DNA from: a virus
Taxonomy: Duplodnaviria > Caudoviricetes
Direction: 5' to 3' (one strand)
Virus record (IMG/VR): IMGVR_UViG_3300030001_000013
Span: 1 to 57,365 of that record
DNA length: 57,365 bases
The position numbers were made by a program, and so were the translations under genes. Shown piece after piece: positions 1 through 53,670 of this stretch (the stretch's first letter is position 1; each line of letters opens with the position of its first letter). Under the pieces are notes generated by a model. It had not been told where the DNA came from. It saw only the letters and a list, made by a program, of their open reading frames with translations, and searched no databases.

Positions 1-43
1 AAATCTTTTGTTATTTCCGGCGAATGAATCAACTGCTTTCATT

Positions 44-394
44 TTATTCACCGCCCTTTGATATTTCATATTCTAAAATACCATCAAAATCAATTATTTT
101 TTTATCTTTTAAACCATTAAGCATATCAATTGTCCATTTTACCATTTTAGGTGTCTTAAATGATAATTTATCCATAAGACTATCAAAATCATGATCTTGT
201 ATTGACATTCCCTGATATACTCCGCAAATATCACCTTTACAGATATATAAAATATATTTACCTCTAAATGTTTGCGGTATAACTATTTTATACCATTGAA
301 CTTTACCTTCGCCCCATTCCGATGGTGCTTTTTCAAATCCATGTTCTAATATTTCAGGTTTTACATTTTTAATTACAATATTAAATTTACTCAT
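44..394 (-). CDS. hypothetical phage protein
   Basis: 116-aa ORF with RBS, in the early operon. Confidence 0.6.
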   Translation of the reverse strand: MSKFNIVIKNVKPEILEHGFEKAPSEWGEGKVQWYKIVIPQTFRGKYILYICKGDICGVYQGMSIQDHDFDSLMDKLSFKTPKMVKWTIDMLNGLKDKKIIDFDGILEYEISKGGE

Positions 395-409
395 GTTTTC
401 GTTTTCCTT

Positions 410-859
410 TCAATCTTTAATCACTGCTGTTGTTATGTATCGACCTTTTTTAATCGCTGTCCTTCGATCATTGACAAAAATATCAACCTTATTCCCTGAT
501 ATTGAACCGCCCCGATCTTGGACAACATATTCATTACCTTCGATCACAACAACTGTTCCAAATGGAATGCTTTCATCCATTGCAATAGTTCTTCCCTCAA
601 TTGCTCTTTTGCCACTTGCAGTAATTCCTTTACCATTCATTGTATCATCTGATGCTGTATAGAATGATACGTTTACGATAATTTCCCTCTGTTTGCGTTC
701 CTGCACTTGCTTTCGCTGTTGTTCTAATGAATCATAGAACTGTTTAAATTGATCTCTTACATTGAAAATGTCGCATTCCTGATATGACCATGACCACGCG
801 ACATTATTTAAACTGATTAAGATTGCGGTTATTAAAACCGCTTTTTTCCCAACACTCAC
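410..859 (-). CDS. 3D (Asp-Asp-Asp) domain protein, secreted cell-wall-active/lytic-transglycosylase-like
   Basis: N-terminal signal-like segment; motifs GITASG, RTIAMD, VVQDRGG, KVDIFV typical of 3D domains. Confidence 0.85.
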   Translation of the reverse strand: MSVGKKAVLITAILISLNNVAWSWSYQECDIFNVRDQFKQFYDSLEQQRKQVQERKQREIIVNVSFYTASDDTMNGKGITASGKRAIEGRTIAMDESIPFGTVVVIEGNEYVVQDRGGSISGNKVDIFVNDRRTAIKKGRYITTAVIKD

Positions 860-863
860 AAAT

Positions 864-1427
864 TCAACTCCCTATTTTCTTGACGTTACTTTCAAATAAT
901 TTCTTCATATCTCCATTCACACTGATCAATACTTTTACATTAATGCTATCGCTATTTTTCCTATTGATCAAATTTTCATAATGCTTTATGAAATGTGCCT
1001 GCTGTACGCTGATCTTTTCAGAACAACACATATTACGAAACCCAACTAATTTTACCGCTTCTGCGATCTCCGGCGTTGAAAATTCTAGCCGTCTACCAAC
1101 TGACCAACTTTTCATTTTGTCTTGAACTTCTCGCCATGCTTCTTCAATTGTTTTTACTTCTGACCCAATCGCTGTACCCATTACGCTTTTTGCTTCTTCA
1201 CGTATCTTTGCAATACTTGGAAAGAAATCTTTACATACATTCATACACTTAAAAACTGCCGCATTTAATTCTGTTGCGCTCAAATCACTTAATGCGATTG
1301 AATATGTGATTATTGTTTGTTTTGTTACCTTTGAATTAGGAAATGCATAAATTAACGGTCTCAATATCTTGCATATCTGCTGTTGCTTGATTGGTAAATC
1401 GTTGATTGCTAAATCGTCAATATCCAT
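864..1427 (-). CDS. replicative helicase loader/inhibitor-like protein (G39P / lambda P-like position)
   Basis: AFP...LSDL...FFPSIAKIRE and EEAWREV motifs; directly downstream of the replication-organiser-like gene. Confidence 0.65.
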   Translation of the reverse strand: MDIDDLAINDLPIKQQQICKILRPLIYAFPNSKVTKQTIITYSIALSDLSATELNAAVFKCMNVCKDFFPSIAKIREEAKSVMGTAIGSEVKTIEEAWREVQDKMKSWSVGRRLEFSTPEIAEAVKLVGFRNMCCSEKISVQQAHFIKHYENLINRKNSDSINVKVLISVNGDMKKLFESNVKKIGS

Positions 1428-1876
1428 TATTTACGCCCCTTGTAAAAATCATCAATATTGTTTTTCTTTGTCGATACTGCTTTACACTCAATTTGATTGA
1501 GATAGCTTTCAAAATGATCTGCCGCGAATAATGTTTCCGGTCGCAAATATTTAGCCTGATCTGTTCCTAACCACTCTTTGGCTTTTTTATCAATTACAAT
1601 TTTGAAATCCTCTTCTGTATGACCTTCTTGCCATCGTGCAGATATCTTGCTTTTTGTGCTCTTAATCTCTCTGTATTTAGTCCCTACGACTTGATTAAGG
1701 TATCCGATTATACTTGTATATGGTATTGCATTTTCTCGCTCTGACAGCTTTCTGATATCTGTTATAGCTAACATATAACCAACTTTGCATGATTCACTGA
1801 TTGAATTATTCTTTTCTAATTCATCTAGCCGCTTCAGTAAGAACTTTGCGGCTTTTTCTAATTCTGTCATAGGCAT
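1427..1876 (-). CDS. replication protein with conserved phage C-terminal domain (Phg_2220_C-like)
   Basis: IIGYLNQVVG..Y, RWQEG.TEEDFKIVID, KYLRPETLF...FESYLNQ. Confidence 0.8.
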   Translation of the reverse strand: MPMTELEKAAKFLLKRLDELEKNNSISESCKVGYMLAITDIRKLSERENAIPYTSIIGYLNQVVGTKYREIKSTKSKISARWQEGHTEEDFKIVIDKKAKEWLGTDQAKYLRPETLFAADHFESYLNQIECKAVSTKKNNIDDFYKGRK

Positions 1877-1907
1877 GCTCTCCTTTTCTCCATAACCTTT
1901 AGAGCGT

Positions 1908-1957
1908 TTGGCACTCTATAGAGCCTACCAACGCTTGATAAGCTCTAACAATGTCAA
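1908..1957 (-). repeat. hairpin repeat copy A (TTGACATT...AGTGCCAA family)
   Basis: Minus strand TTGACATTGTTAGAGCTTATCAAGCGTTGGTAGGCTCTATAGAGTGCCAA; five other copies found by eye. Confidence 0.9.
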
Positions 1958-2115
1958 TCATCAATAATTATTGATGTATAAGTCATTTTTGATAACATTC
2001 TTACTTTGTGACACTTTTTGCATTTGAATTTTACATTTTTACCTTTTGGTGAGAAATGTTCTTCGATCTCTGGAGAATTGCATTCAGGACATTCTAATCT
2101 ATAACCTGTTTTCAT
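1954..2115 (-). CDS. small zinc-ribbon protein (53 aa), not in ORF track
   Basis: Manual translation MKTGYRLECPECNSPEIEEHFSPKGKNVKFKCKKCHKVRMLSKMTYTSIIIDD; RBS AAGGGAG; stop TGA lies inside repeat A. Confidence 0.8.
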   Translation of the reverse strand: MKTGYRLECPECNSPEIEEHFSPKGKNVKFKCKKCHKVRMLSKMTYTSIIIDD

Positions 2116-2165
2116 TTTAATCGTCTCCCTTATATGTTCTAATCGAACCCCTTTTCTATAGTCTT

Positions 2166-2194
2166 ATTATAACTCTCTGCTATATTAATGTAAA
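2166..2194 (-). promoter_or_regulatory. sigma70-type promoter with putative operator (repeated)
   Basis: TTTACA-17-TATAAT; contains TATAACTCTCTGCTATA (plus strand). Confidence 0.8.
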
Positions 2195-2212
2195 GAATTA
2201 TATTACAAATAA

Positions 2213-2482
2213 TTATAAAATAAATAACATTGCAAGCCATGTGATAAATGCAATAATTAATGAAATTTGTCCAATCCCCGGAATCGCCCCGATTAATGCC
2301 GCTTGCCACCATAAAACAACGGTTGTTCTTCCAAAATACGTCAGCCATGTATTTAAAGAATAATGCCAAAATAAAGCATCAACAGCAATAACAATTCCAT
2401 AAATTATAACCGGAATTATGCAACCTTGACCATATATAAATAAACCGAATACTGTTTTTATTACGTTTTTAAATTTTTTCAT
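2213..2482 (-). CDS. small membrane protein
   Basis: 89 aa, mostly hydrophobic helices. Confidence 0.65.
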   Translation of the reverse strand: MKKFKNVIKTVFGLFIYGQGCIIPVIIYGIVIAVDALFWHYSLNTWLTYFGRTTVVLWWQAALIGAIPGIGQISLIIAFITWLAMLFIL

Positions 2483-2534
2483 CCCATTAACTCCCTTATA
2501 ATTTTATAAGAGGAGCAATTAAGCCCCTCCCTGA

Positions 2535-3272
2535 TTAATAAATTACGCCTGTTACGATTAAGAACCCATCTAATCCGGCTTTGATTGTTTCAATTTCGTG
2601 CTTTACTGCTTCTCGCAAATATCGATCATACTTAGGACAACTTAACTTGAATACTAACTTGTCATCCTGGCTTTTCGGTGCTACAATTTCTAATTCAATT
2701 TCAACTTCTTGAAAAAAGCCGCTTTCATTAAAAATTTCAATGTTTGGCAATATCACTTTTGGTAATGAAGTTGTTCCTTCGACTGAACCATTTTGGGTGG
2801 CAACCTTAACTGCAAAAGTATGATTGTTGTCATCATCAAACGACGATTCAAAATCAATGGTTGTATTTCCTTTAAATGTTTGCAGGTTCACAAGCAGACT
2901 TTCCAAACAACCTAATTCATCCTCTTCGCGGCGTTGAAAGAAATTTACGATTTCTTTTTGATAAAATGATGCACCATTTGAAGTTAAAATATTTCCCCAT
3001 TCTTCAACCTGCTGTGACAATTCATAAGCATATGTCACATGATCTTGATTTCTTTCGATAACCTGATCATTTAAGATAGCACATACTCTTTTTTCTGTAT
3101 ATGCAACTACTGCATTTTCTTTTACAGCCTTTGACTGTAACAACGCAATGAATGCCTGTGATGATTTTGCTTCGTATTTAAATCCTCTGTATTGGTAAAT
3201 CTCCGGCGCATCACCTTCGCGTACAATTACTTCTTTTGCTCCATCAACCATTTTTAATTCGATTTTTTCCAT
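2535..3272 (-). CDS. conserved phage protein (YfdQ/DUF2303-like)
   Basis: EV++REG motif and C-terminal pattern; paired with the upstream 112-aa gene; start moved to MEKIE. Confidence 0.5.
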   Translation of the reverse strand: MEKIELKMVDGAKEVIVREGDAPEIYQYRGFKYEAKSSQAFIALLQSKAVKENAVVAYTEKRVCAILNDQVIERNQDHVTYAYELSQQVEEWGNILTSNGASFYQKEIVNFFQRREEDELGCLESLLVNLQTFKGNTTIDFESSFDDDNNHTFAVKVATQNGSVEGTTSLPKVILPNIEIFNESGFFQEVEIELEIVAPKSQDDKLVFKLSCPKYDRYLREAVKHEIETIKAGLDGFLIVTGVIY

Positions 3273-3273
3273 A

Positions 3274-3612
3274 TTATTTAACTCCTCCATCTTCTGTTCC
3301 TGTCAATTTTGCTGGTACTGCCTGAAATAAATCAACCGCTTTTAATGCTTCGCGCGGTTTTTCTGTTTTCAATTTCATATCACCTGTTAATGTACAAAGA
3401 CCTTTGCGCTTGCTGACCGGAAATTTAGGTGTTACACTGCATTCAGCAACAACCATCGTATCCATATCCTCTGGCCTTGATAATGCGATTGTAATGCTAA
3501 TGCCGCCCTTTTGACCTTTTTGAATTGCTGACATTAATACTGGAATAATCGAATCAAACTTCTTGGCAACCTCGCCGCCACAAATGTTTTGCAATGTTAA
3601 TTCTTCTTCCAT
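3274..3612 (-). CDS. conserved phage protein (YfdP-like partner)
   Basis: LQNICGGEV..KFD and ISITI.L motifs; synteny. Confidence 0.45.
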   Translation of the reverse strand: MEEELTLQNICGGEVAKKFDSIIPVLMSAIQKGQKGGISITIALSRPEDMDTMVVAECSVTPKFPVSKRKGLCTLTGDMKLKTEKPREALKAVDLFQAVPAKLTGTEDGGVK

Positions 3613-3664
3613 ATCTTTTCCCCTTTATATTTATTTCGCACACGTTTCATGCGCAAACTCTCCG

Positions 3665-4366
3665 TTATCCTGCCACAACAACCTCAACGCCTGTTGCTCT
3701 CTGAATCTTGTCTTTGATCATTACTTCATCACTATTGCCATTGCTTAGATGCAATAAATAAATCCGTTCTGTTTTACTTAAATCATTTGCTTTGAAAAAT
3801 TTTATTGCATGTTCTAATGAAAAATGGCTTTCAACAATTCTATTTCGCAAGCCGCTATTCAAATTCCCATGCCCCATATTATCGTCAAGAATTTCCTTGA
3901 TATAATTTACCTCTGTGCAAAAATAATTGATACCTGCGAATTTATATTTACAATATGGCGTATCTACTAGATAAACGCCTTTTTTGTTTGTTGCACTACT
4001 TGCAAACATGTATCCGTAATTTGTTACATCATGGACTAAATCAAATGGCATTACGTTGAATGTTCCTATTTGATAATGCTTTTTAGGTTCAACGATCTTT
4101 ACCCTATGACCGGATACTTTCAATGCTTCTGCTGTATCCTGTGACATATAGCAATCAACGCCGCGTTTGATTAAATCCTTTATTGCCTTAGAATGATCAC
4201 CATGTGAGTGGGTAAGCAACACGCCGCCTAATCTGCTGAAATCAAAATCAATTTCGATCTGAATGTTTTTGAAGCTAATACCTGCATCCAATAATAAAAC
4301 CGTTTTCCCATCATCTACTATGCCGCAATTACCTGTACTGCCACTTGCAACAAACCGAATGTTCAT
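3665..4366 (-). CDS. metallo-beta-lactamase-fold hydrolase (YycJ-like nuclease)
   Basis: ASGSTGN, LLDAG, THSHGDH, HD, LLHLS motifs; next to RecT. Confidence 0.9.
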   Translation of the reverse strand: MNIRFVASGSTGNCGIVDDGKTVLLLDAGISFKNIQIEIDFDFSRLGGVLLTHSHGDHSKAIKDLIKRGVDCYMSQDTAEALKVSGHRVKIVEPKKHYQIGTFNVMPFDLVHDVTNYGYMFASSATNKKGVYLVDTPYCKYKFAGINYFCTEVNYIKEILDDNMGHGNLNSGLRNRIVESHFSLEHAIKFFKANDLSKTERIYLLHLSNGNSDEVMIKDKIQRATGVEVVVAG

Positions 4367-4587
4367 ATTTCATTCATCAACTTTTGTATGTCATCCCTAT
4401 TTTGAACTACAGCTTCTTTTATCTTTTCAAATATTTCAGGAGAATTATTCTTGTCAAATGATAATGACTGTGAATTTCCACTAGTACCTATATAAAACGA
4501 TCTATATTCTTCCAAATCTTTAATTTTTTTATTTACCTTTTCGAGATTTGATTTTAACAGATAATATTTTTCTACACGTTCATTCAT
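4363..4587 (-). CDS. hypothetical protein
   Basis: 74-aa ORF overlapping the next start. Confidence 0.55.
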   Translation of the reverse strand: MNERVEKYYLLKSNLEKVNKKIKDLEEYRSFYIGTSGNSQSLSFDKNNSPEIFEKIKEAVVQNRDDIQKLMNEI

Positions 4588-4602
4588 GTATTCATATGTT
4601 TT

Positions 4603-4971
4603 TCATCCATTTGCAATACCCGCCATTTCTAGCAACGTAACATTTTCATCAAATGTGCCTGAAATAGCCATTCCCCCGCCGTCTACATCTACTATATGCG
4701 GTTTTCCATTTCGATTCACAATACCTGTAATAGCTTTTTTTCTTAAATAAAAATTGATTCCTGCATCATCTGTCATTTTAATAAACTTACTAGGATCAAG
4801 CATTTTCCCTAATTCGTCTACTTGTTTATGTTCTGGAAAGAATTCTCTTGTTTCAGAACCAACTAAACCGATGGTAACATCTTTCTGAGCATTTAAAAAC
4901 AGCACTTTAATTTCATCCTGAGCTAATGCAACTTTTCCGTTTTCATCTTCGAAAATTAATAACTTACTCAC
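4603..4971 (-). CDS. hypothetical protein
   Basis: GTG start with AAGGGAG RBS; follows repeat B. Confidence 0.65.
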   Translation of the reverse strand: MSKLLIFEDENGKVALAQDEIKVLFLNAQKDVTIGLVGSETREFFPEHKQVDELGKMLDPSKFIKMTDDAGINFYLRKKAITGIVNRNGKPHIVDVDGGGMAISGTFDENVTLLEMAGIANG

Positions 4972-5010
4972 GTTTACCGTCTCCCTTTATATATTTTTTG
5001 TAGAATGCGT

Positions 5011-5060
5011 TTGGCATTCCATAGAGCCTACCAACGCTTGATAAGCCCTAGCAATGTCAA
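5011..5060 (-). repeat. hairpin repeat copy B
   Basis: Near-identical to copy A (plus ttggcattccatagagcctaccaacgcttgataagccctagcaatgtcaa). Confidence 0.9.
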
Positions 5061-5100
5061 CCTATTGCCGTTACATCTTAACCACCTTCTAACTTCTCTT

Positions 5101-5129
5101 ATTATAACTCTGTGCTATATAATTGTAAA
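5101..5129 (-). promoter_or_regulatory. sigma70-type promoter with putative operator (repeated)
   Basis: TTTACA-17-TATAAT; TATAACTCTGTGCTATA. Confidence 0.8.
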
Positions 5130-5159
5130 GCTTTTTATTACTAATATCTATATTTTATA

Positions 5160-6161
5160 TTAAAATGGGTCTGGTTCTTCTTCACTAATCAATGTTTGTT
5201 CCTGCACCTGCGATTTTTTAGTAGATGTTTTTGTTTCTTTCTTTGTTTCTGGCTTGCTTGCTTTCTTTTCTTCAACCTTTTGTTCCTGAATTGGCTTTTC
5301 TTCTGCCACATTCGCTTCCTGTGCTTCGATTACTTCGCCGCCCTTGTCATTATCTTCATCCATATCTAAAACCTCGCTATTGGCATTCTGAATGATCTCA
5401 GCTTCAATCACTTCATCTGTGATGTTTTTTTCAGAACGATTCAATGATTCAGCAATTAAATAACTATCATTTGAACCATTAATCAGGGGCTTGCATGTTC
5501 TATTAATGACTGTCTTTTTTGCCATTTCTTCGGAAAATTTACCATGGACAGAACCGGGCTTAACATTTCCATGGTCATCAATAGGTAACATTTTCGATTG
5601 TTTCCATGCTTGTTTTATCTGCTCAAATGTCATTATCTGTGTGACATTTCGTTTTTCATCAGGAAATTCGACTACGCAATAAGCCGCTTTGATCTTTGTA
5701 TTATCAATACTATCTAACGTCTGCTCATGCTTTGTAATAATTTTCTTGCCATGTTCAATTTTGTATTCAAATATATCACCTTCATAAACAACTTCGGCAT
5801 AAGCTTCACTAGCTCCCGCCATTGTCTTTACTAAGTGGATTGTTCCAAAATAGCTACGCTGAAAGGTTAGTGTGCCGCCATATACAATGAAATACCCTTG
5901 CTTTTTTACTGGATTCAATCCTTGTGTGATTACATCTAGCAACGCCAACATTACAGAATCTCGTGAACATACTTCCAACGCTGGTTTCCCTACCTTATCC
6001 GTAACACCTTGCAACATTAACCATGAAGCAGTTAAAACATTTGCCGGAATATATTCTTTCGGAAATACCAATTCCTTACTTGCTACATATTCGCTTACCT
6101 TATGCTGTACCGTCTGAATGATCTTTTCCTGCTGAACCGCTTTATCTTTATCAACTGCCAT
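5160..6161 (-). CDS. recT: RecT-family single-strand annealing recombinase
   Basis: GLNPVKKQGYFIVYG, RSYFG, VVYEGD.FEY, EMAKKTVINR; acidic/Lys-rich tail. Confidence 0.9.
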   Translation of the reverse strand: MAVDKDKAVQQEKIIQTVQHKVSEYVASKELVFPKEYIPANVLTASWLMLQGVTDKVGKPALEVCSRDSVMLALLDVITQGLNPVKKQGYFIVYGGTLTFQRSYFGTIHLVKTMAGASEAYAEVVYEGDIFEYKIEHGKKIITKHEQTLDSIDNTKIKAAYCVVEFPDEKRNVTQIMTFEQIKQAWKQSKMLPIDDHGNVKPGSVHGKFSEEMAKKTVINRTCKPLINGSNDSYLIAESLNRSEKNITDEVIEAEIIQNANSEVLDMDEDNDKGGEVIEAQEANVAEEKPIQEQKVEEKKASKPETKKETKTSTKKSQVQEQTLISEEEPDPF

Positions 6162-6162
6162 T

Positions 6163-6447
6163 TTATTTTTCCACCTTTTCGTCTAAATTTAAATTGATTA
6201 ACAATTCCTTTAGCTGTTCCACTTTTTCAATAACTTCCTGCAAAGAAGATGACATTTTTAATTCTTCATTGCATAATCTATCTAAAGCAATAATGATTGT
6301 AGGATAATAGCCGATTGAAGTCCATACGCCATCCGGTTTTAATTCTGTTTTCACTAGCTTTTGTAAAGCCCATTGACAGCGATCACTTGCTAATCTCCAT
6401 TTTTCATTAATACTGCATACTTTCGTATATCCACCCTCTGCCATCAT
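6163..6447 (-). CDS. hypothetical protein (possibly DUF5405-like)
   Basis: W.L.SD..QW.L and W..IGYY motifs. Confidence 0.5.
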   Translation of the reverse strand: MMAEGGYTKVCSINEKWRLASDRCQWALQKLVKTELKPDGVWTSIGYYPTIIIALDRLCNEELKMSSSLQEVIEKVEQLKELLINLNLDEKVEK

Positions 6448-8402
6448 TCAGCCACCACCCTAATTACTTCGTCTGCTTCGGATACATAGAGAGCGCATAA
6501 TTGAGATTCGATAATAGGTAAGACAACAATGCTTTCCGCATTATCTACAAATGTAGGCAAATAAATTCCGTAATGCTGTGCCAACGTGTCGCAAATATCT
6601 AAACCTATAATTATCCTGCTAGAACTATTTAAATCGTTCCACGTGACACCATTGAACATTGTCTTGCAACAATCCGCAATAGAACCGTTTACCTGCGTTT
6701 CAAACAATTTGAATCTGGCAAATTTGAATTTGCTATTAATGTTCTGTTCAATCATATTTACCTTGAATTTTGTGAACTCTTCGACTAGATATGTTTGTTT
6801 TTCTAAACTGCTATACTCAGCCGACAATTTACGTTCTTGCTCTTTTAACTGATCAATACGAACTTTCATTGCTTCGTTCTGCTGAATGGCGGCAATATGT
6901 TTGCGTAAACCTTCAATTTCGGATTCAAATTTCTGTGCCAATTCTATTTTTTGTACGATCACATCATTTTTTGACTGCTGAATGTCAACGATCTCAATTT
7001 CAACCTTTTTCTTTTCATCGTTCAATAAATTTTGCTTTTCCGAGTTATCAGGAACAATTATAGCCAATATTTCTGTTTTGATGTTATCAATTAATTGCTG
7101 TGAGCTATTTTTTTGAGCAGAAAGGTTTTCTTCTTCGGACTTTATTTGTTCCACCTTGGATTGTTTTTCTTCTATTTCTGCTTTCATTCCTGTTCCTGTT
7201 GTCATAATGCTTTCAATCGTATCAGATTTTAATTTGTTAAAATCTTCTAACGCTTTTACCCGTGCCGCTTCTAATTTTTCCTCTTGCAATCCCTGTCCGC
7301 ATGTAGGACACACACATTCTGCATTATGAACAAATTCCTTTTTCTTGACTTCTTTCAACTGCGCCAATAATTCGGATTTTTTTGTTTTCTTGATTGCAAT
7401 ATCGCTTTCTATCTGCGATATATTACGCCGCCCTGTCAATATTTTGTTTTCAATATCAGACAGCTTTACAGATTCTTGATTTAATTGATTTTGTTTGACC
7501 TGTTTTGCTTCTTGTTCTGCCTTAATGTGTTCATTTTGTAGCTTCATGATCTCGTTGTCGATCTCTGCTAACCGGACACGTTTTGCCGCAACTGCGCTAT
7601 CATTTCGAATATCGCTTACTTGTTTTTCAACTGCCGACTTATTAGATTTTAATTCGTCAATTTTGATCTGAATTGATTCTTGCGAAACTGCATCAACTCC
7701 CGCTGTTGCCTCTAACGTTCTGCTTGCTTCATCAATTCTTGTCGGTATTGCTGTCAATTCCTGATTTACTTCTTTTTTCTTTGCCGCAACAATAGCCTTT
7801 AAATCTTCAATACTTTTCTTGCCTAATATTTCTAGCAGACCGGATAAACTTTTATTACCTGCAATTACATCTTTATCCGTTATATCACCGCAAACCGACA
7901 GCAATAATTCCCTGCGTTTTTTCCAACCAAAAGCTTTTTCATCGTTAAAGAATAATGGATTTGTTAATAATTTAAATTGATCTGCACTTGCCAAGCCTTC
8001 GGTAAATATGTCATACGCTTTCTTTTGGGTAGGTACTTCGTTAATATAATAATTCGTTGTGTGACCGGACAATACGGCTTCTTCTGACCCTTTATGCTTT
8101 GTCCAATCTTCCATGTATGCTCGTCTTAAAATCAATTCTTCGCCATCTTCTAATAATGTGCATTCAACTTCATGATGTAAACCGTGAATAGGATTATTAT
8201 TAGAATCCAATGTCTTAATGTCGAAATCTGCTTTACCTTCTGAATCCTTACCGCTAAATAACCACGAAAACGCATCAACAATTGTCGTTTTACCTTTTCC
8301 GTTTGTTGCAAAAATATCTGTTCGATCTTTCCCGAACTCAACAACTAAATCCTTAATACCTTTGAAATTCTGCAATCTCATTCTCTTTAAAATTAATCTC
8401 AT
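6444..8402 (-). CDS. SbcC/Rad50-like AAA ATPase with coiled coil and zinc hook
   Basis: LQNFKG, NGKGKTT Walker A, CPTCGQ hook, PTFVDNAES Walker B. Confidence 0.9.
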   Translation of the reverse strand: MRLILKRMRLQNFKGIKDLVVEFGKDRTDIFATNGKGKTTIVDAFSWLFSGKDSEGKADFDIKTLDSNNNPIHGLHHEVECTLLEDGEELILRRAYMEDWTKHKGSEEAVLSGHTTNYYINEVPTQKKAYDIFTEGLASADQFKLLTNPLFFNDEKAFGWKKRRELLLSVCGDITDKDVIAGNKSLSGLLEILGKKSIEDLKAIVAAKKKEVNQELTAIPTRIDEASRTLEATAGVDAVSQESIQIKIDELKSNKSAVEKQVSDIRNDSAVAAKRVRLAEIDNEIMKLQNEHIKAEQEAKQVKQNQLNQESVKLSDIENKILTGRRNISQIESDIAIKKTKKSELLAQLKEVKKKEFVHNAECVCPTCGQGLQEEKLEAARVKALEDFNKLKSDTIESIMTTGTGMKAEIEEKQSKVEQIKSEEENLSAQKNSSQQLIDNIKTEILAIIVPDNSEKQNLLNDEKKKVEIEIVDIQQSKNDVIVQKIELAQKFESEIEGLRKHIAAIQQNEAMKVRIDQLKEQERKLSAEYSSLEKQTYLVEEFTKFKVNMIEQNINSKFKFARFKLFETQVNGSIADCCKTMFNGVTWNDLNSSSRIIIGLDICDTLAQHYGIYLPTFVDNAESIVVLPIIESQLCALYVSEADEVIRVVAE

Positions 8403-8415
8403 GTTTTTCGCTCCC

Positions 8416-8640
8416 CTATGCTCTTCGTTCTTCTAAATAAGAAATGAAGGCTATTTTCTTTATTCTTACTGCTCTACCAACTCTTACGATTGGGCAATCC
8501 GGCTCCAATATAATATCACGAATTGTTCTTTCAGATAACTGTGTCAACTCTGTTGCTTGACCTACCGTTATTAAGCTTTCATCATTATTTTCAAGCCTTA
8601 CAAGAATCTTTTCCAGAACTTCCTTGATCTGCTCTTCCAT
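8416..8640 (-). CDS. excisionase-like HTH protein
   Basis: LITVGQATELTQLSERTI...VRVGRAVRI pattern. Confidence 0.8.
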   Translation of the reverse strand: MEEQIKEVLEKILVRLENNDESLITVGQATELTQLSERTIRDIILEPDCPIVRVGRAVRIKKIAFISYLEERRA

Positions 8641-8986
8641 CTTCCATCCCTCGCAAAGGTTCGTCTATAATAAATCTTTCAATTGGAAACCCTGATAACT
8701 GTGAAAGCTTTAACGCCTGTTCTGCTGTCGGCTTTCTTTTAAAACCGTCTTGGCCTGTTTCCCATTGACAAACAACTACCTGAGAAATTCCTAATTCTAT
8801 CGCAAGTTCAGATTGTTTCATATCTAATTTTTCTCTCAATTCATAAACTGCTTTTGCAATTGTATTCGTAAAATCTTCATCCTTTTTGTTGAAACGTCTG
8901 CGCCGTTTGCACTGATTTTTCAATTTCTGAATGTCGCCGTTGCATTCATCATGGAACTGACATTTTTTATTGTAGCAATAAATCAT
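8591..8986 (-). CDS. Cro-like XRE HTH regulator with Cys-rich N-terminus
   Basis: LREKLDMKQSELAIELGISQVVVCQWETG; divergent from the repressor. Confidence 0.8.
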   Translation of the reverse strand: MIYCYNKKCQFHDECNGDIQKLKNQCKRRRRFNKKDEDFTNTIAKAVYELREKLDMKQSELAIELGISQVVVCQWETGQDGFKRKPTAEQALKLSQLSGFPIERFIIDEPLRGMEDGRADQGSSGKDSCKA

Positions 8987-9178: not shown

Positions 9179-9556
9179 ATGAAAAATCTAGGGTCAAAAT
9201 TGAAAGAATTGCGGAAGATGGAACGCTTAACCACGAAAGAATTAGCGGACAAACTCCAATTGTCGCAACCCTATATTAGTCAGATTGAAAGCGGCGGGCG
9301 CGTTCCACATCCTAAGAACATTCAAAAAATGGCAGACTTTTTCAACGTCCCGTACGGATACCTTATGACAGACGAAGCAATCAACCTAGATGAATTTAAA
9401 CAGGTTGAGGGGCTAATTATAGATAGAGGTAAAGAGAAATATATTCCATATTATTTAGTAGTTGATAAAGCAATTGAGGAGGAAATAACCCCCAGTGAAT
9501 TAGAAGATGCAATCGATTTTGTTAAAAAATATAAAAATAAAACGCCCTCAACATAA
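9179..9556 (+). CDS. CI-like XRE-family repressor
   Basis: LKELRK..RLTTKELADKLQLSQPYISQIESG.R.P; no peptidase domain visible. Confidence 0.85.
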   Translation: MKNLGSKLKELRKMERLTTKELADKLQLSQPYISQIESGGRVPHPKNIQKMADFFNVPYGYLMTDEAINLDEFKQVEGLIIDRGKEKYIPYYLVVDKAIEEEITPSELEDAIDFVKKYKNKTPST

Positions 9557-9779: not shown

Positions 9780-10898
9780 ATGAATAAACGCGCGAATGGT
9801 GAAGGAACATTTAGAATCAGAGATAATGGAACATGGGAATGCATGATAAGATACAATGGAAAACGCCATAGTGTATATGGTAAATCAAGAAAAGAATGCA
9901 TCACAAAATTAAAAGAATTAAAAAAGAAACTTGATTTTGGAATTGCAGAAAAATCAAAGCATATGACATATGAAACTCTTTTAAAAAATTATCTTGAAAA
10001 TATTATAGCGATCAAGAATAGACCGTCAACCTATGATAATTATAAAATCGTTATAGATAATCACCTAATACCTCATTTAGGAAAATATAAAGTTGATAAA
10101 TTAACGCGTACTGATATTCAAGACATGATCAAGAAAGAAAAGAAAGCGGGAAAATCTGCAAGCACTATCGGCTTAATTCATCATGTTTGCAAGACTTCGC
10201 TTGCCTATGCTATTGAATTAAAAATCATCATGGAAAATCCATCTTTCGGCGTTGTTAAGCCACAAATTGATAAAAAGGAAATGAGCGTATTAACCGAAGA
10301 CCAATTCCGTCATTTACGTGATGTTGGCGGCGATATTCGATCCAAAGAAAGAATGTTTTCCTGTTTTATATTTATGTTTTACACCGGACTGCGGCGCGGT
10401 GAAGCACTAGGATTAAAATGGTCTGATATTGATATGACTGAAAAATCATTATCAATGAAACGTGCTGTCACTAAATCAACATCAAAAGGCATTATAATTA
10501 CAAAAGGAAAAACTGCCCGCGCTGTACGAGCAATACCACTGCCGGAAAACTCAATAAAAGAATTGCTGATCTTTAAAGAAACACAAGCAAAAGAAAAAGC
10601 ATTTTACGGTAAAAAATACAATAATGAAAATTGGATATTCTGCCGACCGGACGGGAAACGTTATTACCCTACATCATTACGAAAAATATTCCTCCGTATT
10701 CTGGCTCTAGCAGACATTCCACCGATTCGAGTACATGATACTAGGCATACATTTGCAACGTTCTTGATGCTTGCAGGAGAGAACCCCAAGACTGTACAGG
10801 CAATTATGGGTCATGCTAATATTTCAACGACTTTAGGATATAGTCATGTTACTGATGGATTAAAACGTCAAGCGGCTGATAAATTGGATAATATATAA
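9780..10898 (+). CDS. int: tyrosine integrase
   Basis: N-terminal KRANGEG arm-binding motif; TGLRRGE, HDTRHT, MGH..ISTTLGYSH catalytic motifs. Confidence 0.95.
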   Translation: MNKRANGEGTFRIRDNGTWECMIRYNGKRHSVYGKSRKECITKLKELKKKLDFGIAEKSKHMTYETLLKNYLENIIAIKNRPSTYDNYKIVIDNHLIPHLGKYKVDKLTRTDIQDMIKKEKKAGKSASTIGLIHHVCKTSLAYAIELKIIMENPSFGVVKPQIDKKEMSVLTEDQFRHLRDVGGDIRSKERMFSCFIFMFYTGLRRGEALGLKWSDIDMTEKSLSMKRAVTKSTSKGIIITKGKTARAVRAIPLPENSIKELLIFKETQAKEKAFYGKKYNNENWIFCRPDGKRYYPTSLRKIFLRILALADIPPIRVHDTRHTFATFLMLAGENPKTVQAIMGHANISTTLGYSHVTDGLKRQAADKLDNI

Positions 10899-10903
10899 AT
10901 AAA

Positions 10904-10968
10904 ATCGGCTGATTTATTCAGTCGCTTTTTTATAAATAAAAATAACCGATGAAATTAATCATCGGTTT
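10904..10968. terminator. convergent terminators between int and the tRNA-like locus
   Basis: CGGCTGA-TTTAT-TCAGTCG plus T run; AACCGATG...CATCGGTT hairpin. Confidence 0.65.
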
Positions 10969-11130
10969 ATAAAAGGATACATATTACTATGGAACTATTT
11001 TATTTAGAAGAGTGTTACCCAATTGATTTATAAGCCTAATCAGAATTTAGTTTTAGATTACAACCTTGTAAGAATAATCTGCTTATCAAATGTTTAGTTT
11101 TTTCACGTCTGCACTCTCCAACCAGCTTTT

Positions 11131-11201
11131 AGCCAATCCAGGGAATCGAACCCCATATTTTCGCTGTGCCGCGAAACGCTTTACCTTTAAGCTATATTGA
11201 C
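11131..11201 (-). ncRNA. degenerate tRNA-like RNA (Cys-like; 8-nt anticodon loop, no encoded CCA)
   Basis: Cloverleaf by eye: GTCAATA/GATTGGC acceptor, GCTT/AAGC D arm, TTTCG/CGAAA stem, TGGGG-TTCGATT-CCCTG T arm. Confidence 0.65.
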
Positions 11202-11204
11202 ATA

Positions 11205-11281
11205 TGGAGCAGAGGGCAGGATTCGCACCTGCTTTGTCGGTAAAGGTCTCCCGCCGACTATATATGGATTCTAAGCTTTGC
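11205..11281 (-). ncRNA. second tRNA-like RNA with T arm and CCA but remodelled D and anticodon arms
   Basis: GCAAAGC...GTCGG-13nt-CCGAC-AAA-GCAGG-TGCGAAT-CCTGC-CCTCTGC-T-CCA. Confidence 0.55.
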
Positions 11282-11415
11282 TGAGTTACAATTATATTGA
11301 TTTCAGTTATTGTGATGTTGAGCGGAACTTCATACATTTTCATGCTCCATAATGTGCGCTTGTTCCCGCACTTCCCGCGTGTCTCACCACGCCGCACCAA
11401 CTTCTTACAATTCTT

Positions 11416-11444
11416 ATTATACTTCTAAGCTATTCCATTGTCAA
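11416..11444 (-). promoter_or_regulatory. perfect consensus sigma70 promoter
   Basis: TTGACA-17-TATAAT pointing into the non-coding tRNA-like region. Confidence 0.85.
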
Positions 11445-11489
11445 TACTTTTATTACTAAAAGCTATAAATTTATTGATGTTTTTTGAAT

Positions 11490-11651
11490 TTATTTTACCT
11501 TCTTATCATTTTCTCGCCTTTGCTTTAACTCAGCCATTATTTTATATACGCTTAATGCATTCTTACGTTCGCTTTGAAAAAACGCACTTCTTGCTTTTAT
11601 TTCATACCACTCCATTAAACTATCTAAAGATTTATCGCTTATTACTTCCAT
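11490..11651 (-). CDS. small hypothetical protein (53 aa), not in ORF track
   Basis: Manual translation MEVISDKSLDSLMEWYEIKARSAFFQ...; RBS AAGGTGG. Confidence 0.5.
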   Translation of the reverse strand: MEVISDKSLDSLMEWYEIKARSAFFQSERKNALSVYKIMAELKQRRENDKKVK

Positions 11652-11653
11652 AA

Positions 11654-11914
11654 TTATTCCACCTTATCTTTAATATCCTTTACCCACTTTTCCTTTGTCG
11701 TTCCTGTTGCTCCGCATTTCATGCAAACAAAATAGCCCTTATAACATCCATATTGATTACCGCCGCGCAAATATCGCTTGTCACTATGTCCGCTGATCTT
11801 CTTTATGTTTGTACTGCCGCAATATTCGCAACACTTCACACTCATATAACCCTTTTTCCTAAGAAATAACCATGCTAATTTTAGTCTTTGATAAAATGAT
11901 TCTTTACTTGCCAT
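11654..11914 (-). CDS. zinc-ribbon protein
   Basis: CEYCGS and CMKCG pairs. Confidence 0.7.
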   Translation of the reverse strand: MASKESFYQRLKLAWLFLRKKGYMSVKCCEYCGSTNIKKISGHSDKRYLRGGNQYGCYKGYFVCMKCGATGTTKEKWVKDIKDKVE

Positions 11915-12055
11915 TTACACTCTCACCTTTATATATAAATACCCTGTCATGATAGCAATAGCCCAATAAATAATAAATTTAATAAACCACGTTCTATGTT
12001 CTTTTCTTATTTGTCTTTTTTCTTTTATTTGCTGGACTGTTATTTCATATTTCAC
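11915..12055 (-). CDS. small membrane protein (46 aa), not in ORF track
   Basis: GTG start, basic N-half and one hydrophobic helix; fills the gap between neighbouring genes. Confidence 0.45.
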   Translation of the reverse strand: MKYEITVQQIKEKRQIRKEHRTWFIKFIIYWAIAIMTGYLYIKVRV

Positions 12056-12380
12056 TTTGATCAACCTTTTCCATTTTATGTTTTATATAAATATACAAAT
12101 TTGTATGATGTTCTATATACATTGTTTTGTTTACTACTAGCACATGATCTCGTGGATAATCGTCAAATTCAACGCCATGCATTAATCTTGTGTTAATGCA
12201 AATTTCTTGTACTTTACTAATTGAATTATTTATTAAGAATTTCTTAAAAAATACTTTATCTCCATATGCTATAAATATTCCATCAATTGAACATATGGCA
12301 AAACGTCTTTTATTTGTTTTTATATCCCATACAAAACGTTTTAAAATAGACTGTTGACGAATTGTTAATGTTTTCATCAT
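12045..12380 (-). CDS. hypothetical protein
   Basis: 111 aa, translationally coupled to the rep-like gene. Confidence 0.6.
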   Translation of the reverse strand: MMKTLTIRQQSILKRFVWDIKTNKRRFAICSIDGIFIAYGDKVFFKKFLINNSISKVQEICINTRLMHGVEFDDYPRDHVLVVNKTMYIEHHTNLYIYIKHKMEKVDQSEI

Positions 12381-13228
12381 GCCGCCACCTTTCGCAATAG
12401 ATTGGTCAATATACCATCACTAAGAAAATGCCATATCTTATAATCACAATCTTTATATTCTGTATTGAAATACTTATCCATTGCCAAAATCATAATGTCG
12501 AAACTTGCCTGAAATTCTTTATCTTCATTTACTGAATAATAACTGTTTGATATGAATATGCTGTTAAGCTGTTCATATATTCTGCTATCACGTATAGGAG
12601 CATGATGTTCATCGAATCGATTCATATACCTTCGATCAAATTCTTGTATGCAACTTATTGTCAAATCTAAAGAATCTTTCGCATAATACGTAGCAGGTAT
12701 CCATCGTTTATTTTTACCGTCCTCGGTATAACCCGAGCATTTATCTTTTAATTCTTTAGTATCTTTTATAGAATAATCTTTTATAGAAGTATCTTTGTTA
12801 GGCCATTTTGACACTTGGTCTAGTTTCGTTTTGATATTTGGTCTAATGTCATTTTGAACTTTGGTTATTTTAGGGGGTTCATCTATTTGATCATAATCAG
12901 AAAGAGAATCCATTTTTTGTGTATGCTTAACATAATAAAATCTTCCGGCTATGCCTTTTTTATTTGTTATGACAATACTTTCTAAAAATCCATCATCACA
13001 TAATTTTGTCAACATTCTTTTCAATTTGCTCATACTGCCAATAATTGGTATTTGTTGAAGCAAATATGATTGATTTACCCATATGTAACGTTTAGATTCA
13101 TTAATAAGGCTTTCCATACTATCACTTGAATACATATCCTTTATTGTTCTAAGCAATAGAGCATCTTCCAATGATAGATTATTCTCTATAAGCTTATTTT
13201 GTTGAAATCCTAAAACTGTATATTTCAT
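12377..13228 (-). CDS. replication initiator-like protein (N-terminal winged helix)
   Basis: MKYTVLGFQQ...YIWVNQSYLL..IPII...LKRML.KL...GFL resembles Clostridia phage/plasmid initiators; internal direct repeats. Confidence 0.65.
   Translation of the reverse strand: MKYTVLGFQQNKLIENNLSLEDALLLRTIKDMYSSDSMESLINESKRYIWVNQSYLLQQIPIIGSMSKLKRMLTKLCDDGFLESIVITNKKGIAGRFYYVKHTQKMDSLSDYDQIDEPPKITKVQNDIRPNIKTKLDQVSKWPNKDTSIKDYSIKDTKELKDKCSGYTEDGKNKRWIPATYYAKDSLDLTISCIQEFDRRYMNRFDEHHAPIRDSRIYEQLNSIFISNSYYSVNEDKEFQASFDIMILAMDKYFNTEYKDCDYKIWHFLSDGILTNLLRKVAA
12806..12874. repeat. three imperfect 23-bp direct repeats (putative iterons)
   Basis: TTTTGA...TTGGT units start at 12806, 12829 and 12852; adjacent AT-rich ATCTTTTATAGAA x2 at 12761 and 12776. 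Confidence 0.7.
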
Positions 13229-13250
13229 TTTGCCCCTCTTTTCTTTTAGA

Positions 13251-13282
13251 CAAACAAAAAAGCAACCGCTAAACGATTGCTT
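13251..13282 (-). terminator. terminator/attenuator in the rep leader
   Basis: AAGCAATCG-TTTAG-CGGTTGCTT followed by TTTTGTTTG, about 20 nt before the rep start. Confidence 0.75.
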
Positions 13283-13315
13283 ACTGACACTTATCCAATT
13301 TCGAGCCTTTTAGTA

Positions 13316-13344
13316 TTGCCACCACAATTTACCTATGGTATAAT
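13316..13344 (+). promoter_or_regulatory. antisense promoter
   Basis: TTGCCA-17-TATAAT with extended TG. Confidence 0.75.
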
Positions 13345-13350
13345 ATTACT

Positions 13351-13424
13351 AAAGGTTTGCTGATTGGTTCAGGTTTTCAGCGAATCGCCTGAAAGTGTTA
13401 GCGCACCGACAGGCTTTATTTTTT
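13351..13424 (+). ncRNA. putative countertranscript (antisense) RNA to the rep leader
   Basis: Two hairpins (TTTGCTGA/TCAGCGAA; GCCTG/CAGGC) ending in a T run; no ORF. Confidence 0.65.
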
Positions 13425-13445
13425 TGTCCGAATGTATGTAAGTTC

Positions 13446-13474
13446 ATTATAACTCATAGCAATGTAATAAACAA
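13446..13474 (-). promoter_or_regulatory. rep promoter
   Basis: TTGTTT-17-TATAAT, with GAGTTATAAT shared with the repeated promoter family. Confidence 0.55.
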
Positions 13475-13552
13475 CTTAAAAAGTAATTTGCGCTATGATA
13501 CAATATGTGGTATTATAAATTCATAGCTCATGTTTTTCGTTCTCCAACGAAA

Positions 13553-13586
13553 GAAAAAGACCAACATTAATTTGTTGGTCTTTTTT
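13553..13586. terminator. bidirectional terminator downstream of tRNA-Phe
   Basis: AAAAAGACCAACA-loop-TGTTGGTCTTTTTT. Confidence 0.75.
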
Positions 13587-13783
13587 GTGTCTATGCGTTA
13601 TAATATTGATGCTTACAATCTAATTCTATACGTATTATTTTGCTTTGTTGCTGTGTAAAATAATTTTACATATAAACTATTACATAACGTAAAAATAAGC
13701 GTTTAAAACATTAATGGTGGTATTTGTGGTGGTATTGACAAACTTTTAATAATTGAAAAGACGAAATTTTAATGATTGAAAAG

Positions 13784-13859
<76 letters not shown>

Positions 13860-13863
13860 AAAT

Positions 13864-13908
13864 TGGCGACCCGAATCGGATTTGAACCGACGACCTCTTG
13901 CGTGACAG
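13864..13908 (-). pseudogene. 3' half of tRNA-Asp(GTC), probable att core
   Basis: Starts at the anticodon loop CTGTCAC, includes the T arm and ends GCCA; the 5' half is absent. Confidence 0.9.
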
Positions 13909-14048
13909 TTATGCTTTCATGATTGCGCCTGCCTGCGCCACTATGAATGGCGATACAAAACACAAAAATGAAAATACCACCTGCACCCCAAAAAATATAG
14001 GAATGCACTGACTTGGTGGTGTTTCGTGGTGGTATGGATGAAATATAA

Positions 14049-14084
14049 AAAAGCCCCTTGCCAAATTAATGGTAAAGGGCTTTT
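14049..14084 (-). terminator. terminator of the late/lysis operon
   Basis: AAAAGCCC...GGGCTTTT inverted repeat with A/T runs. Confidence 0.7.
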
Positions 14085-14097
14085 AATTATGTCCTTA

Positions 14098-14910
14098 TTA
14101 AATTTTAGATAATGTTTCTGCAACCTTTGATTTGAGTGTAGAAATACCGGAAGCAATCTCTTTAGCAACGTATAATTTAAAACCATATGCTGGCGCCATG
14201 TTCAGATCATAACCTAAAGCCTTAATCCAATTGTTTGCAACTTTGTTTCTTTTGGTAATCATGAGATTCAACCAATCTTCTACAGGCTGTAAAACTTTTT
14301 CCTGTACAAGCGTTGTAGCATTTGTTAAATCAGCCGTTGAAACTGAATCTGTATTGACTGTAACTTGAAATGATGCTAATGCCGCTTTTGCCGCCGCCTT
14401 GATAGAATCCCAATCCTCCGAAACTGTCGTTGTCGTGCTTGTGCTTGCCGCTGTAGCCGCTTTTTCAACAGCATCAACAACTATACTAGCTGTGCTAATA
14501 ACTGTGCCGATTTCAGCCGCAACCGCTGTTGCTGTCAATGCAATGTCAACGGATAATGCCGTATCTTCATCAACCGGAACAACTGATTCAGAAAAATTAT
14601 CATAACCTGAAATCGATACAGCAACCGGATAACTTGCACCAACTACTAAACCACCGATTATTGCCTGACCGTCTGCATTTGTCGTATATGGTATTGTTCC
14701 CGAACCATCAATTGTAATATTTACGGTAGCACCTTCTATTGCCTTATTTGTTGCTTTGTCCTTAACTGTTACTAAAAATTTAGCCATTTTATTATATTCC
14801 TTCTTTTCTATTATTTTTTTTATTTCATCTATGACAAAGGGCATTGCGCTAACAATACCCTTTACAATGTAGGGCTTTAATGCTTCTAAGATTGATAATA
14901 TATAAGACAC
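14098..14910 (-). CDS. protein with carboxypeptidase-regulatory-like (Ig/transthyretin-like) domain and Ala/Thr-rich helical tail
   Basis: VTVKDKATNKAIEGATV...TTNADG...GY pattern. Confidence 0.6.
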   Translation of the reverse strand: MSYILSILEALKPYIVKGIVSAMPFVIDEIKKIIEKKEYNKMAKFLVTVKDKATNKAIEGATVNITIDGSGTIPYTTNADGQAIIGGLVVGASYPVAVSISGYDNFSESVVPVDEDTALSVDIALTATAVAAEIGTVISTASIVVDAVEKAATAASTSTTTTVSEDWDSIKAAAKAALASFQVTVNTDSVSTADLTNATTLVQEKVLQPVEDWLNLMITKRNKVANNWIKALGYDLNMAPAYGFKLYVAKEIASGISTLKSKVAETLSKI

Positions 14911-53349: not shown

Positions 53350-53670
53350 CTAATCGCAATAACTTCTATTACAATGTGGACAACCTGTAATTAATTCTGT
53401 GCTTGCTCTTTCAAGCGAAATACCATATACACGGTCAACCATTTCACCATCAATATTACATTCTGTTCCTCTTGAATATGGCGCATCTGGATTGTCTTTA
53501 TATCCTACATTCTGATAAATATTTTTATTGCAATTCCAACAAATTCCGCTATGAGGTGCGAAATCAGGATAACCATTTTTATTCTGATAATCCGATTGTG
53601 ATTTTGCGCATTCACTAATTTCTTTATCAGTCTTTCTTATTAACTTTTCCGTAAAGATACCCCATTTCAT
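53350..53670 (-). CDS. hypothetical zinc-binding protein
   Basis: FAP..G.CWNC and ITGCPHCNRSYCD. Confidence 0.65.
   Translation of the reverse strand: MKWGIFTEKLIRKTDKEISECAKSQSDYQNKNGYPDFAPHSGICWNCNKNIYQNVGYKDNPDAPYSRGTECNIDGEMVDRVYGISLERASTELITGCPHCNRSYCD

Follow-up and report, generated by a model that had tools for sequence, protein, structure and literature searches.

The 57,365-base record IMGVR_UViG_3300030001_000013 is a whole IMG/VR virus record of a tailed phage (Caudoviricetes), rated 100% complete and devoid of end repeats, which we analyzed over its full length (hereafter the window). Its genes lie on the minus strand nearly throughout. In the interval between the lysis genes and the integrase, the features follow one another in minus-strand order: a tRNA 3′ half, a tRNA-Phe gene, a bidirectional terminator, the stretch studied here (13229–13474, 246 nt), a gene for a 283-aa replication-initiator-like protein termed rep (12377–13228, minus strand) and four small ORFs (111, 49, 86, and 53 aa) that gave no family matches. 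The 246-nt stretch is the putative control region of rep: it carries a weak candidate promoter, a convergent promoter for a predicted antisense RNA and an intrinsic terminator placed just before the rep ribosome site. We read this arrangement as probable countertranscript control of a rep-like gene in a temperate phage, a reading deduced from the DNA itself and to which we assign a probability of about 0.5.

The rep leader is predicted to extend over 13229–13439 (minus strand), its 5′ end being set by the putative weak promoter TTGTTT-17-TATAAT at 13446–13474 (−35 at 13474–13469, −10 at 13451–13446). The resulting length of ~211 nt matches the ~210 nt given by an earlier sequence-only reading of this DNA, but it hangs on a promoter that was read from the sequence and falls below the threshold of our scan. 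The leader folds with −55.3 kcal/mol (z −3.1), a value attained by 1 of 200 shuffles. Immediately 5′ of the rep translation start, it contains an intrinsic terminator (13251–13282, minus strand) composed of the stem 13282–13273/13269–13260, a UUA loop, and a U-tract. The terminator scan detected the same structure at 13282..13260, with 10 base pairs (four of them G–C), a loop of 3 and the tail TTTTGTTTGT, so the terminator claimed at 13251–13282 by the earlier reading is borne out. Its hairpin (−10.8 to −11.3 kcal/mol) is present in both the minimum free energy and the centroid structures of the leader, and the region 11500–14500 holds three terminator-like sites compared with 1.1 expected from shuffles. 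A gap of 19 nt separates the terminator from the rep Shine-Dalgarno sequence AAGAGGGG, read at 13233–13240 (minus strand). Since there is no room for a sigma-70-type promoter between 13260 and 13240–13233, rep would be transcribed only by read-through of this terminator.

Convergent with the putative rep promoter, the plus strand of the leader carries the antisense promoter TTGCCA-17-TGgTATAAT (13316–13344), which matches at 11 of 12 positions and has a TG before the −10. Promoters were scanned on both strands of the whole window (114,730 bases) at a threshold of 11/12, with thirty dinucleotide shuffles as the reference. Eight sites reached at least 11/12, where the shuffles averaged 4.2 and never exceeded 8; seven of these sites are on the minus strand, six of these in gaps ahead of minus-strand genes, and the 13316 site is both the sole plus-strand member of the set and the sole one with an extended −10. 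At the shuffle rate, we calculate that 211 nt would carry such a site on a given strand with a probability of ~0.008. The transcript would be a plus-strand RNA of ~73 nt (13351–13425, both ends predicted) made up of hairpin 1 (13354–13386) and a terminator hairpin (13387–13414), whose stem GCCUG...CAGGC is followed by UUUAUUUUUUU and which has its U-run at 13415–13425. The segment 13350–13428 folds on the plus strand into two hairpins with −23.9 kcal/mol (z −2.8), a stability reached by 4 of 200 shuffles. Both the convergent promoter and the ~75-nt two-hairpin RNA of the earlier reading thus reappear in our scans and folds. The predicted RNA is fully complementary to leader nt ~17–89, so that a putative antisense RNA gene lies inside the rep leader and converges with the rep promoter.

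The hairpins of the two transcripts are strand-specific. Hairpin 1 has −12.6 kcal/mol on the plus strand versus −5.0 on the minus strand, and the leader terminator has −10.8 kcal/mol on the minus strand versus −5.5 on the plus strand, because the G–U pairs of one strand become A–C mismatches on the other. This asymmetry of both hairpins supports the existence of two separate RNAs. The small-RNA region is also a local maximum of G+C content, 0.45–0.47 versus ~0.3 around it. A 12-nt motif, TGTGGTGGCAAT (13315–13326, minus strand), overlies the −35 of the antisense promoter; TGTGGTGGYAWT has two exact copies in the window, the second at 13725–13736 (plus strand), beside tRNA-Phe. A type I toxin-antitoxin reading of the region was rejected, no plausible small hydrophobic ORF being found within 13229–13474.

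Between tRNA-Phe and the rep promoter, the terminator scan and an inverted-repeat search located a perfect 13-bp palindromic terminator that is bidirectional (13554–13585, both strands). On the plus strand, a promoter-like TTAAAA-17-TGaTACAAT stands back to back with the putative rep promoter and is followed ~50 nt on by this terminator, so that 13476–13590 is possibly a second small plus-strand RNA. A 14-nt inverted repeat containing TATAAT occupies 13446–13459 and 13591–13604.

The product of rep is composed of an N-terminal winged-helix domain (residues ~1–110), a disordered linker, and a helical C-terminal module (residues ~171–283). The 283-aa protein has no match in Pfam, NCBIfam, or PADLOC. 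In PHROGs it matches phrog_428, “replication initiation protein” (E 4.2e-5, residues 8–170), and a tblastn search against phages gave 44% identity over residues 1–151 (E 4e-28) to proteins of Clostridium phages whose annotation is replication initiation protein or DnaD-like helicase loader. A protein search returned 64 homologues, nearly all matching the N-terminal ~55% only and many ending in DnaD or Phg_2220_C domains; the closest, P0003–P0007, show 65–70% identity in their N-terminal half. In the AlphaFold model, the predicted local distance difference test (pLDDT) score exceeds 90 at residues ~10–110, while residues 119–185 are disordered, with values below 50 at the repeat-encoded peptide described below; Foldseek returned weak matches (E 0.019–0.03) to winged-helix domains, including the DnaD N-terminal domain. 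The phrog_428 match, the tblastn hits, and the model concur on a winged-helix N-terminus homologous to phage initiators. The gene named rep in the sequence-only reading therefore does encode a replication-initiator-like protein, resembling initiators of the phage replisome-organizer type.

The C-terminal ~120 residues of this protein form a separate module, nearly identical in the proteins P0002 and P0008, whose N-termini are unrelated. In the ESM Atlas, the module resembles stand-alone 117-aa proteins, mostly viral (TM 0.70–0.75), and the C-termini of Lin1244_N and HTH_36 proteins (TM 0.54–0.56). Pfam recognizes neither a DnaD nor a Phg_2220_C domain at the rep C-terminus, where this different helical module is found. 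The window encodes the two halves of a phrog_428-type initiator at separate places: positions 92–252 of the profile correspond to the 283-aa protein, and positions 221–317 correspond to a 149-aa Phg_2220_C protein of the early operon (1427–1876, minus strand), the second piece of phrog_428.

Tandem Repeats Finder detected two repeats in the linker-coding part of rep, one of 15 nt × 2.4 (12761–12796) and one of 23 nt × 2.7 (12804–12865), which are candidate iterons or a candidate origin within the initiator gene. The peptide that they encode carries a motif (K145, D146, S148, I149, D151, S153, I154) that is nearly invariant across the 64 homologues and yet is disordered in the model. This combination suggests that the region is conserved as a DNA site, as happens where a phage initiator gene harbors its own origin. 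In all four sequencing runs in which contigs of the region were compared, a 3584-nt contig aligns to 56 bases of the phage only (12755–12810, 8 differences), and these cover the 15-nt repeats of the rep linker. Its word depth is 279–455 in the two runs that list depth, versus 9–20 for the phage; another, more abundant element of the same samples shares the rep linker repeat region.

The layout of the control region is closest to that of the Gram-positive plasmid countertranscript controls of pT181, pIP501/pAMbeta1, and pSK41, as outlined in excerpts of PMC5703833: a leader with a convergent promoter inside it, a small antisense RNA of two hairpins, and a terminator that directly precedes the ribosome site. 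With the repC leader of the Staphylococcus plasmid pT181 and its countertranscripts RNAI/RNAII (Novick et al. 1989, described in excerpts of PMC5703833), it shares an antisense RNA arising from inside the rep leader, a terminator of the sigma-independent type directly before the rep start, and a target upstream of that terminator. It differs from pT181 in four respects: its leader has no convincing pre-emptor (antiterminator); its initiator is not a Rep_trans rolling-circle protein, belongs to no Pfam family, and resembles winged-helix replisome organizers; its small RNA is unlike the Rfam ctRNA families; and the host element is a tailed temperate phage. The Inc18 plasmids pIP501/pAMbeta1, which combine RNAIII-mediated attenuation of repR with the CopR repressor (same excerpts), likewise have a long leader; their antisense and rep promoters converge, and rep is preceded by a terminator-like structure. 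Here, the initiator family is unrelated and the upstream neighbor is a tRNA gene; upstream of the rep promoter there are the terminator and tRNA-Phe, with no ORF of at least 40 aa bearing a helix-turn-helix (HTH) that could stand for a small Cop gene. The leader is shorter (~211 nt) than the ~320 nt of related staphylococcal plasmids (pCH91 and others; PMC5703833, excerpts). In size and shape, the nearest counterpart of the ~73-nt RNA is RNAI of the RepA_N plasmids pSK41/pSK1, which has ~83 nt, two stem-loops, and a target ~100 nt upstream of the translation start (PMC5703833, excerpts). RNAI of pSK41 induces sequestration of the ribosome site, whereas the pairing of the ribosome site predicted here is the same in the free and the masked leader, and equilibrium folding does not predict a pSK41-type ribosome-site switch. 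Searches for homology to ctRNA families (Rfam, E up to 10) and to Rep_trans or RepR initiators (Pfam) were negative. Judged by sequence homology, the rep control is not a member of the pT181, pIP501, or pSK41 families; of the pT181/Inc18 logic invoked by the earlier reading, the layout stands, and the defining pre-emptor is not supported.

The folding predictions and the comparative data both weigh against countertranscript control of rep, as does the rep promoter, which is weak, is placed by inspection, and has a −35 matching at 3 of 6 positions. The switches were assessed with equilibrium folding models, in which binding of the antisense RNA was represented by masking its target. The candidate antiterminator, or pre-emptor (13379–13387, minus strand), was expected by the sequence-only reading to be complementary to the 5′ arm of the leader terminator from within the antisense target. 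This complementarity is real: CGAUUCGCU (13387–13379) can pair with AGCAAUCG (13282–13274). The duplex reaches −7.3 kcal/mol compared with −11.3 for the terminator hairpin, and it is weak and not much above chance: dinucleotide shuffling of the target yields an equal energy 75 times in 2000, and shuffling of the entire leader upstream does so 129 times in 2000. In nascent transcripts that end before the terminator 3′ arm, its pairing probability is at most 0.08. For a leader ending at 13255 and four assumed 5′ ends, the mean pair probability of the terminator is 0.91–0.95 in the free state and 0.94–0.96 with the target masked. The ensemble cost of not forming the terminator is 9.4–10.3 kcal/mol free and 9.2–10.3 masked. 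The ribosome-site region (13236–13244) pairs with the terminator U-tract to the same extent in both states, with an unpaired probability of 0.67. The models thus predict that the terminator forms with or without bound antisense RNA, and they do not support the pre-emptor of a pT181- or pIP501-type attenuator.

On the comparative side, a similar leader was found in none of 54 loci that encode relatives of rep (28–65% identity to the query), drawn from viral, genome, and metagenome contigs, some of them present in two collections; two further loci with less than 150 nt upstream were dropped. In 31 of the 54, a same-strand upstream ORF ends within 30 nt of the start; the gap is 48–75 nt in three loci and 125–320 nt in 14, and no upstream ORF was called in six. 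A sense-strand terminator occurs within 300 nt upstream in three of the 54 loci; L030 alone has one within 60 nt, and there it marks the end of the upstream ORF. Searches for the leader itself in viral_contigs (IMG/VR) with two exact and two degenerate DNA patterns gave no match, blastn in its distant setting against GenBank phages and PLSDB plasmids matched only the unrelated terminator 13554–13585, and no Rfam family matched the RNA, whether at gathering score or with E relaxed to 10. The runs containing the stretch (11400–13900) are all listed as DNA (guessed from the record), none as RNA, and come from peat or bog metagenomes. Contigs from four of these DNA runs over 10900–14300 show the same sequence without leader variants, so that no covariation can be read from them; two of the four may be the source samples.

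Twenty loci have long or unresolved gaps, and of these only L056 and L057 showed an antisense promoter with a terminator. This unit was rejected as an RNA control, since it encodes a 50-aa opposite-strand ORF with sub-threshold ribbon-helix-helix (RHH) matches. In the region 2723–3000 of L056, a 57.9-kb relative, the 50-aa ORF lies divergently ahead of a 266-aa rep homologue with a Phg_2220_C domain, and GGTATGG repeats adjoin the promoter TATGGTATAAT ahead of that homologue; the control in L056 is protein-based and not RNA-based. The phrog_428 replisome organizers, such as those of the Clostridium phages phi3626 and CP51, share with rep the N-terminus (44% identity over 151 residues) and the linker repeats. 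They differ in that the gene is operon-packed in the 31 loci mentioned above, while rep is a solitary gene, set between the integrase and the lysis genes with the tRNA, that has a control region of its own and another C-terminal module.

Four other explanations of the region were weighed. A true pT181-type attenuator, in which CGAUUCGCU of the free leader pairs with the terminator 5′ arm to allow read-through and the antisense RNA sequesters it to impose termination, we consider doubtful. The complementarity does exist within the antisense target, it is used by the best alternative fold when the terminator 3′ arm is masked and the 5′ end set at 13440, and the pre-emptor lies in a weak leader hairpin (−5.0 kcal/mol) from which it could be available. 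The energies, the shuffles of target and upstream leader, the low nascent pairing, and the unchanged occupancy and cost of the terminator reported above all speak against it. Ribosome-mediated read-through is very improbable. It would involve a leader mini-ORF of 13–14 codons (13281–13325, minus strand; GUG at 13325 or 13322 to UAA at 13283–13281), the translation of which would put a ribosome over the terminator 5′ arm and would be modulated by the antisense RNA. Such leader-ORF translation is the target of the antisense RNA in the R1 CopA/tap and IncI Inc RNA/repY systems. The stop codon of the mini-ORF overlaps the first bases of the terminator stem, an SD-like AGGU is present, the end of the antisense RNA lies 16 nt upstream of this AGGU, and the start region sits in a central hairpin, the outer stem of which shares bases with the 5′ end of the antisense target. 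Against this, an equivalent ORF arises in 125 of 2000 shuffles, which leaves the mini-ORF as a lead only; its start is GUG, its SD weak and its conservation nil; the central hairpin is nearly unchanged under the target mask; and ribosome-coupled attenuation is not known as a common mode of control in Bacillota.

The remaining two explanations dissociate the elements from one another. The terminators 13585–13554 and 13282–13260 might simply shield the prophage end against transcription running on from the tRNA genes or the late operon, with the small RNA employed otherwise, on a trans target or in the manner of OOP of phage lambda. OOP is an antisense RNA of ~77 nt with its own promoter and terminator, located just upstream of the initiator gene O, itself a phage initiator gene with origin iterons inside its coding sequence; its target is the 3′ end of cII, and the leader region here differs in having no protein gene upstream. 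The position of the region directly downstream of tRNA-Phe and the tRNA 3′ half would suit such insulation, as would the bidirectionality of the first terminator, the absence of a predicted switch, and the rep relatives that do without such a leader. This is nonetheless unlikely. Hairpin 1 has no trans target in evidence, its loop giving 4 matches at no more than 2 mismatches versus 2.1 expected, with its own site as the sole exact one; the small RNA pairs with the ribosome-site region of rep no more strongly than shuffles do (457 of 1000); and the only leader that rep can have encloses the whole small-RNA sequence. Finally, the resemblance to the plasmid layout could be due to chance, with a plus-strand promoter that is silent or irrelevant and a terminator that merely ends an upstream transcript. 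That the case consists of one sequence, with no RNA run listed for it and no leader homologue found, would fit. The low probability (~0.008) of an antisense-strand site of at least 11/12 in 211 nt, the terminator at the right distance past the promoter, and the strand specificity of both hairpins make this explanation highly unlikely.

In the countertranscript control that we propose, a weak minus-strand promoter would start the ~211-nt leader, and the leader terminator would stop most transcripts, leaving a low basal read-through into rep. As the candidate origin lies inside rep, the terminator would also limit transcription across the origin. A strong convergent promoter inside the leader would make an abundant ~73-nt two-hairpin antisense RNA, which would pair with the 5′ part of the leader and lower rep expression further. 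By analogy with the Gram-positive plasmid countertranscripts, such a lowering of rep expression is the most likely effect of the antisense RNA. Because the terminator is predicted to form regardless of the antisense RNA, the latter may act otherwise than through the pre-emptor, which, from the models, is most likely not the coupling element. Duplex-triggered cleavage or decay, interference between the convergent promoters, and a kinetic effect on termination are candidates for the coupling. The idea of interference follows the description of pIP501, in which more RNAIII is made when the rep promoter is repressed (PMC5703833, excerpts).

If this reading is true, a plasmid-type antisense control has been grafted onto a phage replisome-organizer gene in a phage that has integration and partition genes. 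It would add a case to the little-studied setting of copy number in phage-plasmids and dual-lifestyle prophages, and it would provide a compact orthogonal pair of antisense RNA and terminator from an uncultured peat phage; attenuators of this kind serve as synthetic regulators (excerpts of PMC3753616 and PMC4878617). At present the case is one sequence, and the kind of control is itself well known.

A cI-like repressor (9179–9556) and a tyrosine integrase (9780–10898) are encoded on the plus strand; the integrase has no close relatives in viral_contigs. On the minus strand, a ParA gene (54470–55213; AAA_31, E 3e-44; phrog_164, E 2e-54) and a ParB-like gene (53627–54463; phrog_4715, E 1e-51) lie together. 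The presence of this pair alongside the integrase suggests that a plasmid state may be possible, and partition genes and a replication initiator do occur together in this tailed-phage genome. In Bacillota, a replication initiator, partition genes of the ParA type, and a tyrosine recombinase are common in plasmid prophages (excerpts of PMC8026635, in whose main text the word “antisense” does not appear), and among mycobacterial prophages, extrachromosomal ones whose replication systems are RepA-like or RNA-based have been described (excerpts of PMC7157519).

Directly upstream of the whole tRNA-Phe gene (13859–13784, minus strand), a tRNA-Asp 3′ half was recognized by eye within 13784–13905 (minus strand), with the anticodon-loop start CTGTCAC and a CCA end. 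Phage attP cores classically take this form, and the fragment is attP-like. Integrase and attP-like fragment argue for integration, in agreement with the integrating phage of the sequence-only reading. The contigs of the four DNA runs end at the tRNA, with no junction seen, and contigs of other organisms from the same runs align to 13794–13908. The motif TGGTGGTAT flanks the tRNA-Asp half and tRNA-Phe on both sides, at 13713–13736, 13974–13982, and 14014–14036. These copies near the tRNA account for 5 of the 24 matches in the window at no more than 1 mismatch and for 3 of the 4 exact ones; they could be integrase arm sites, or sites for Rep or ParB.

A more far-reaching view, which we consider unlikely, is that the phage is a facultative phage-plasmid. 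It would integrate by means of its tyrosine integrase at an attP formed by the tRNA-Asp 3′ half and tRNA-Phe, and it carries ParA/ParB. A lambda-O-like initiator with an internal origin would have left the early operon and come under a countertranscript and a leader terminator of plasmid style. The TGTGGTGGYAWT motif, whose only copy besides that at the antisense promoter is next to the tRNA/attP, may allow a single DNA-binding protein (the arm-binding domain of the integrase, Rep, or another) to tie antisense RNA output to the state of integration or replication.

Elsewhere in the window, early and recombination genes, including those for RecT, an SbcC-like ATPase, and a single-stranded DNA-binding protein (SSB), occupy 1–8986 and the far end, and the terminase, portal, tail, and lysis genes extend downwards as far as 14098. 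Next to the integrase, a perfect consensus promoter TTGACA-17-TATAAT (11444–11416, minus strand) reads into ~300 nt (11131–11444) that close with two tandem tRNA-like 3′ parts. One of them ends in ...CCTGCCCTCTGCTCCA at ~11207; the other (11201–11131) scores 32.9 bits as tRNA in Rfam and gives no ARAGORN call. The 11131–11444 segment might represent either a tRNA-like RNA that is expressed or a second tRNA fragment of att-like character. A protein with a TET-associated glycosyltransferase domain (TAGT, E 2e-11) is encoded next to a ParB_N/methyltransferase-like protein (43865–45300, minus strand), immediately upstream of the terminase genes, and this pair may constitute a DNA-modification module.

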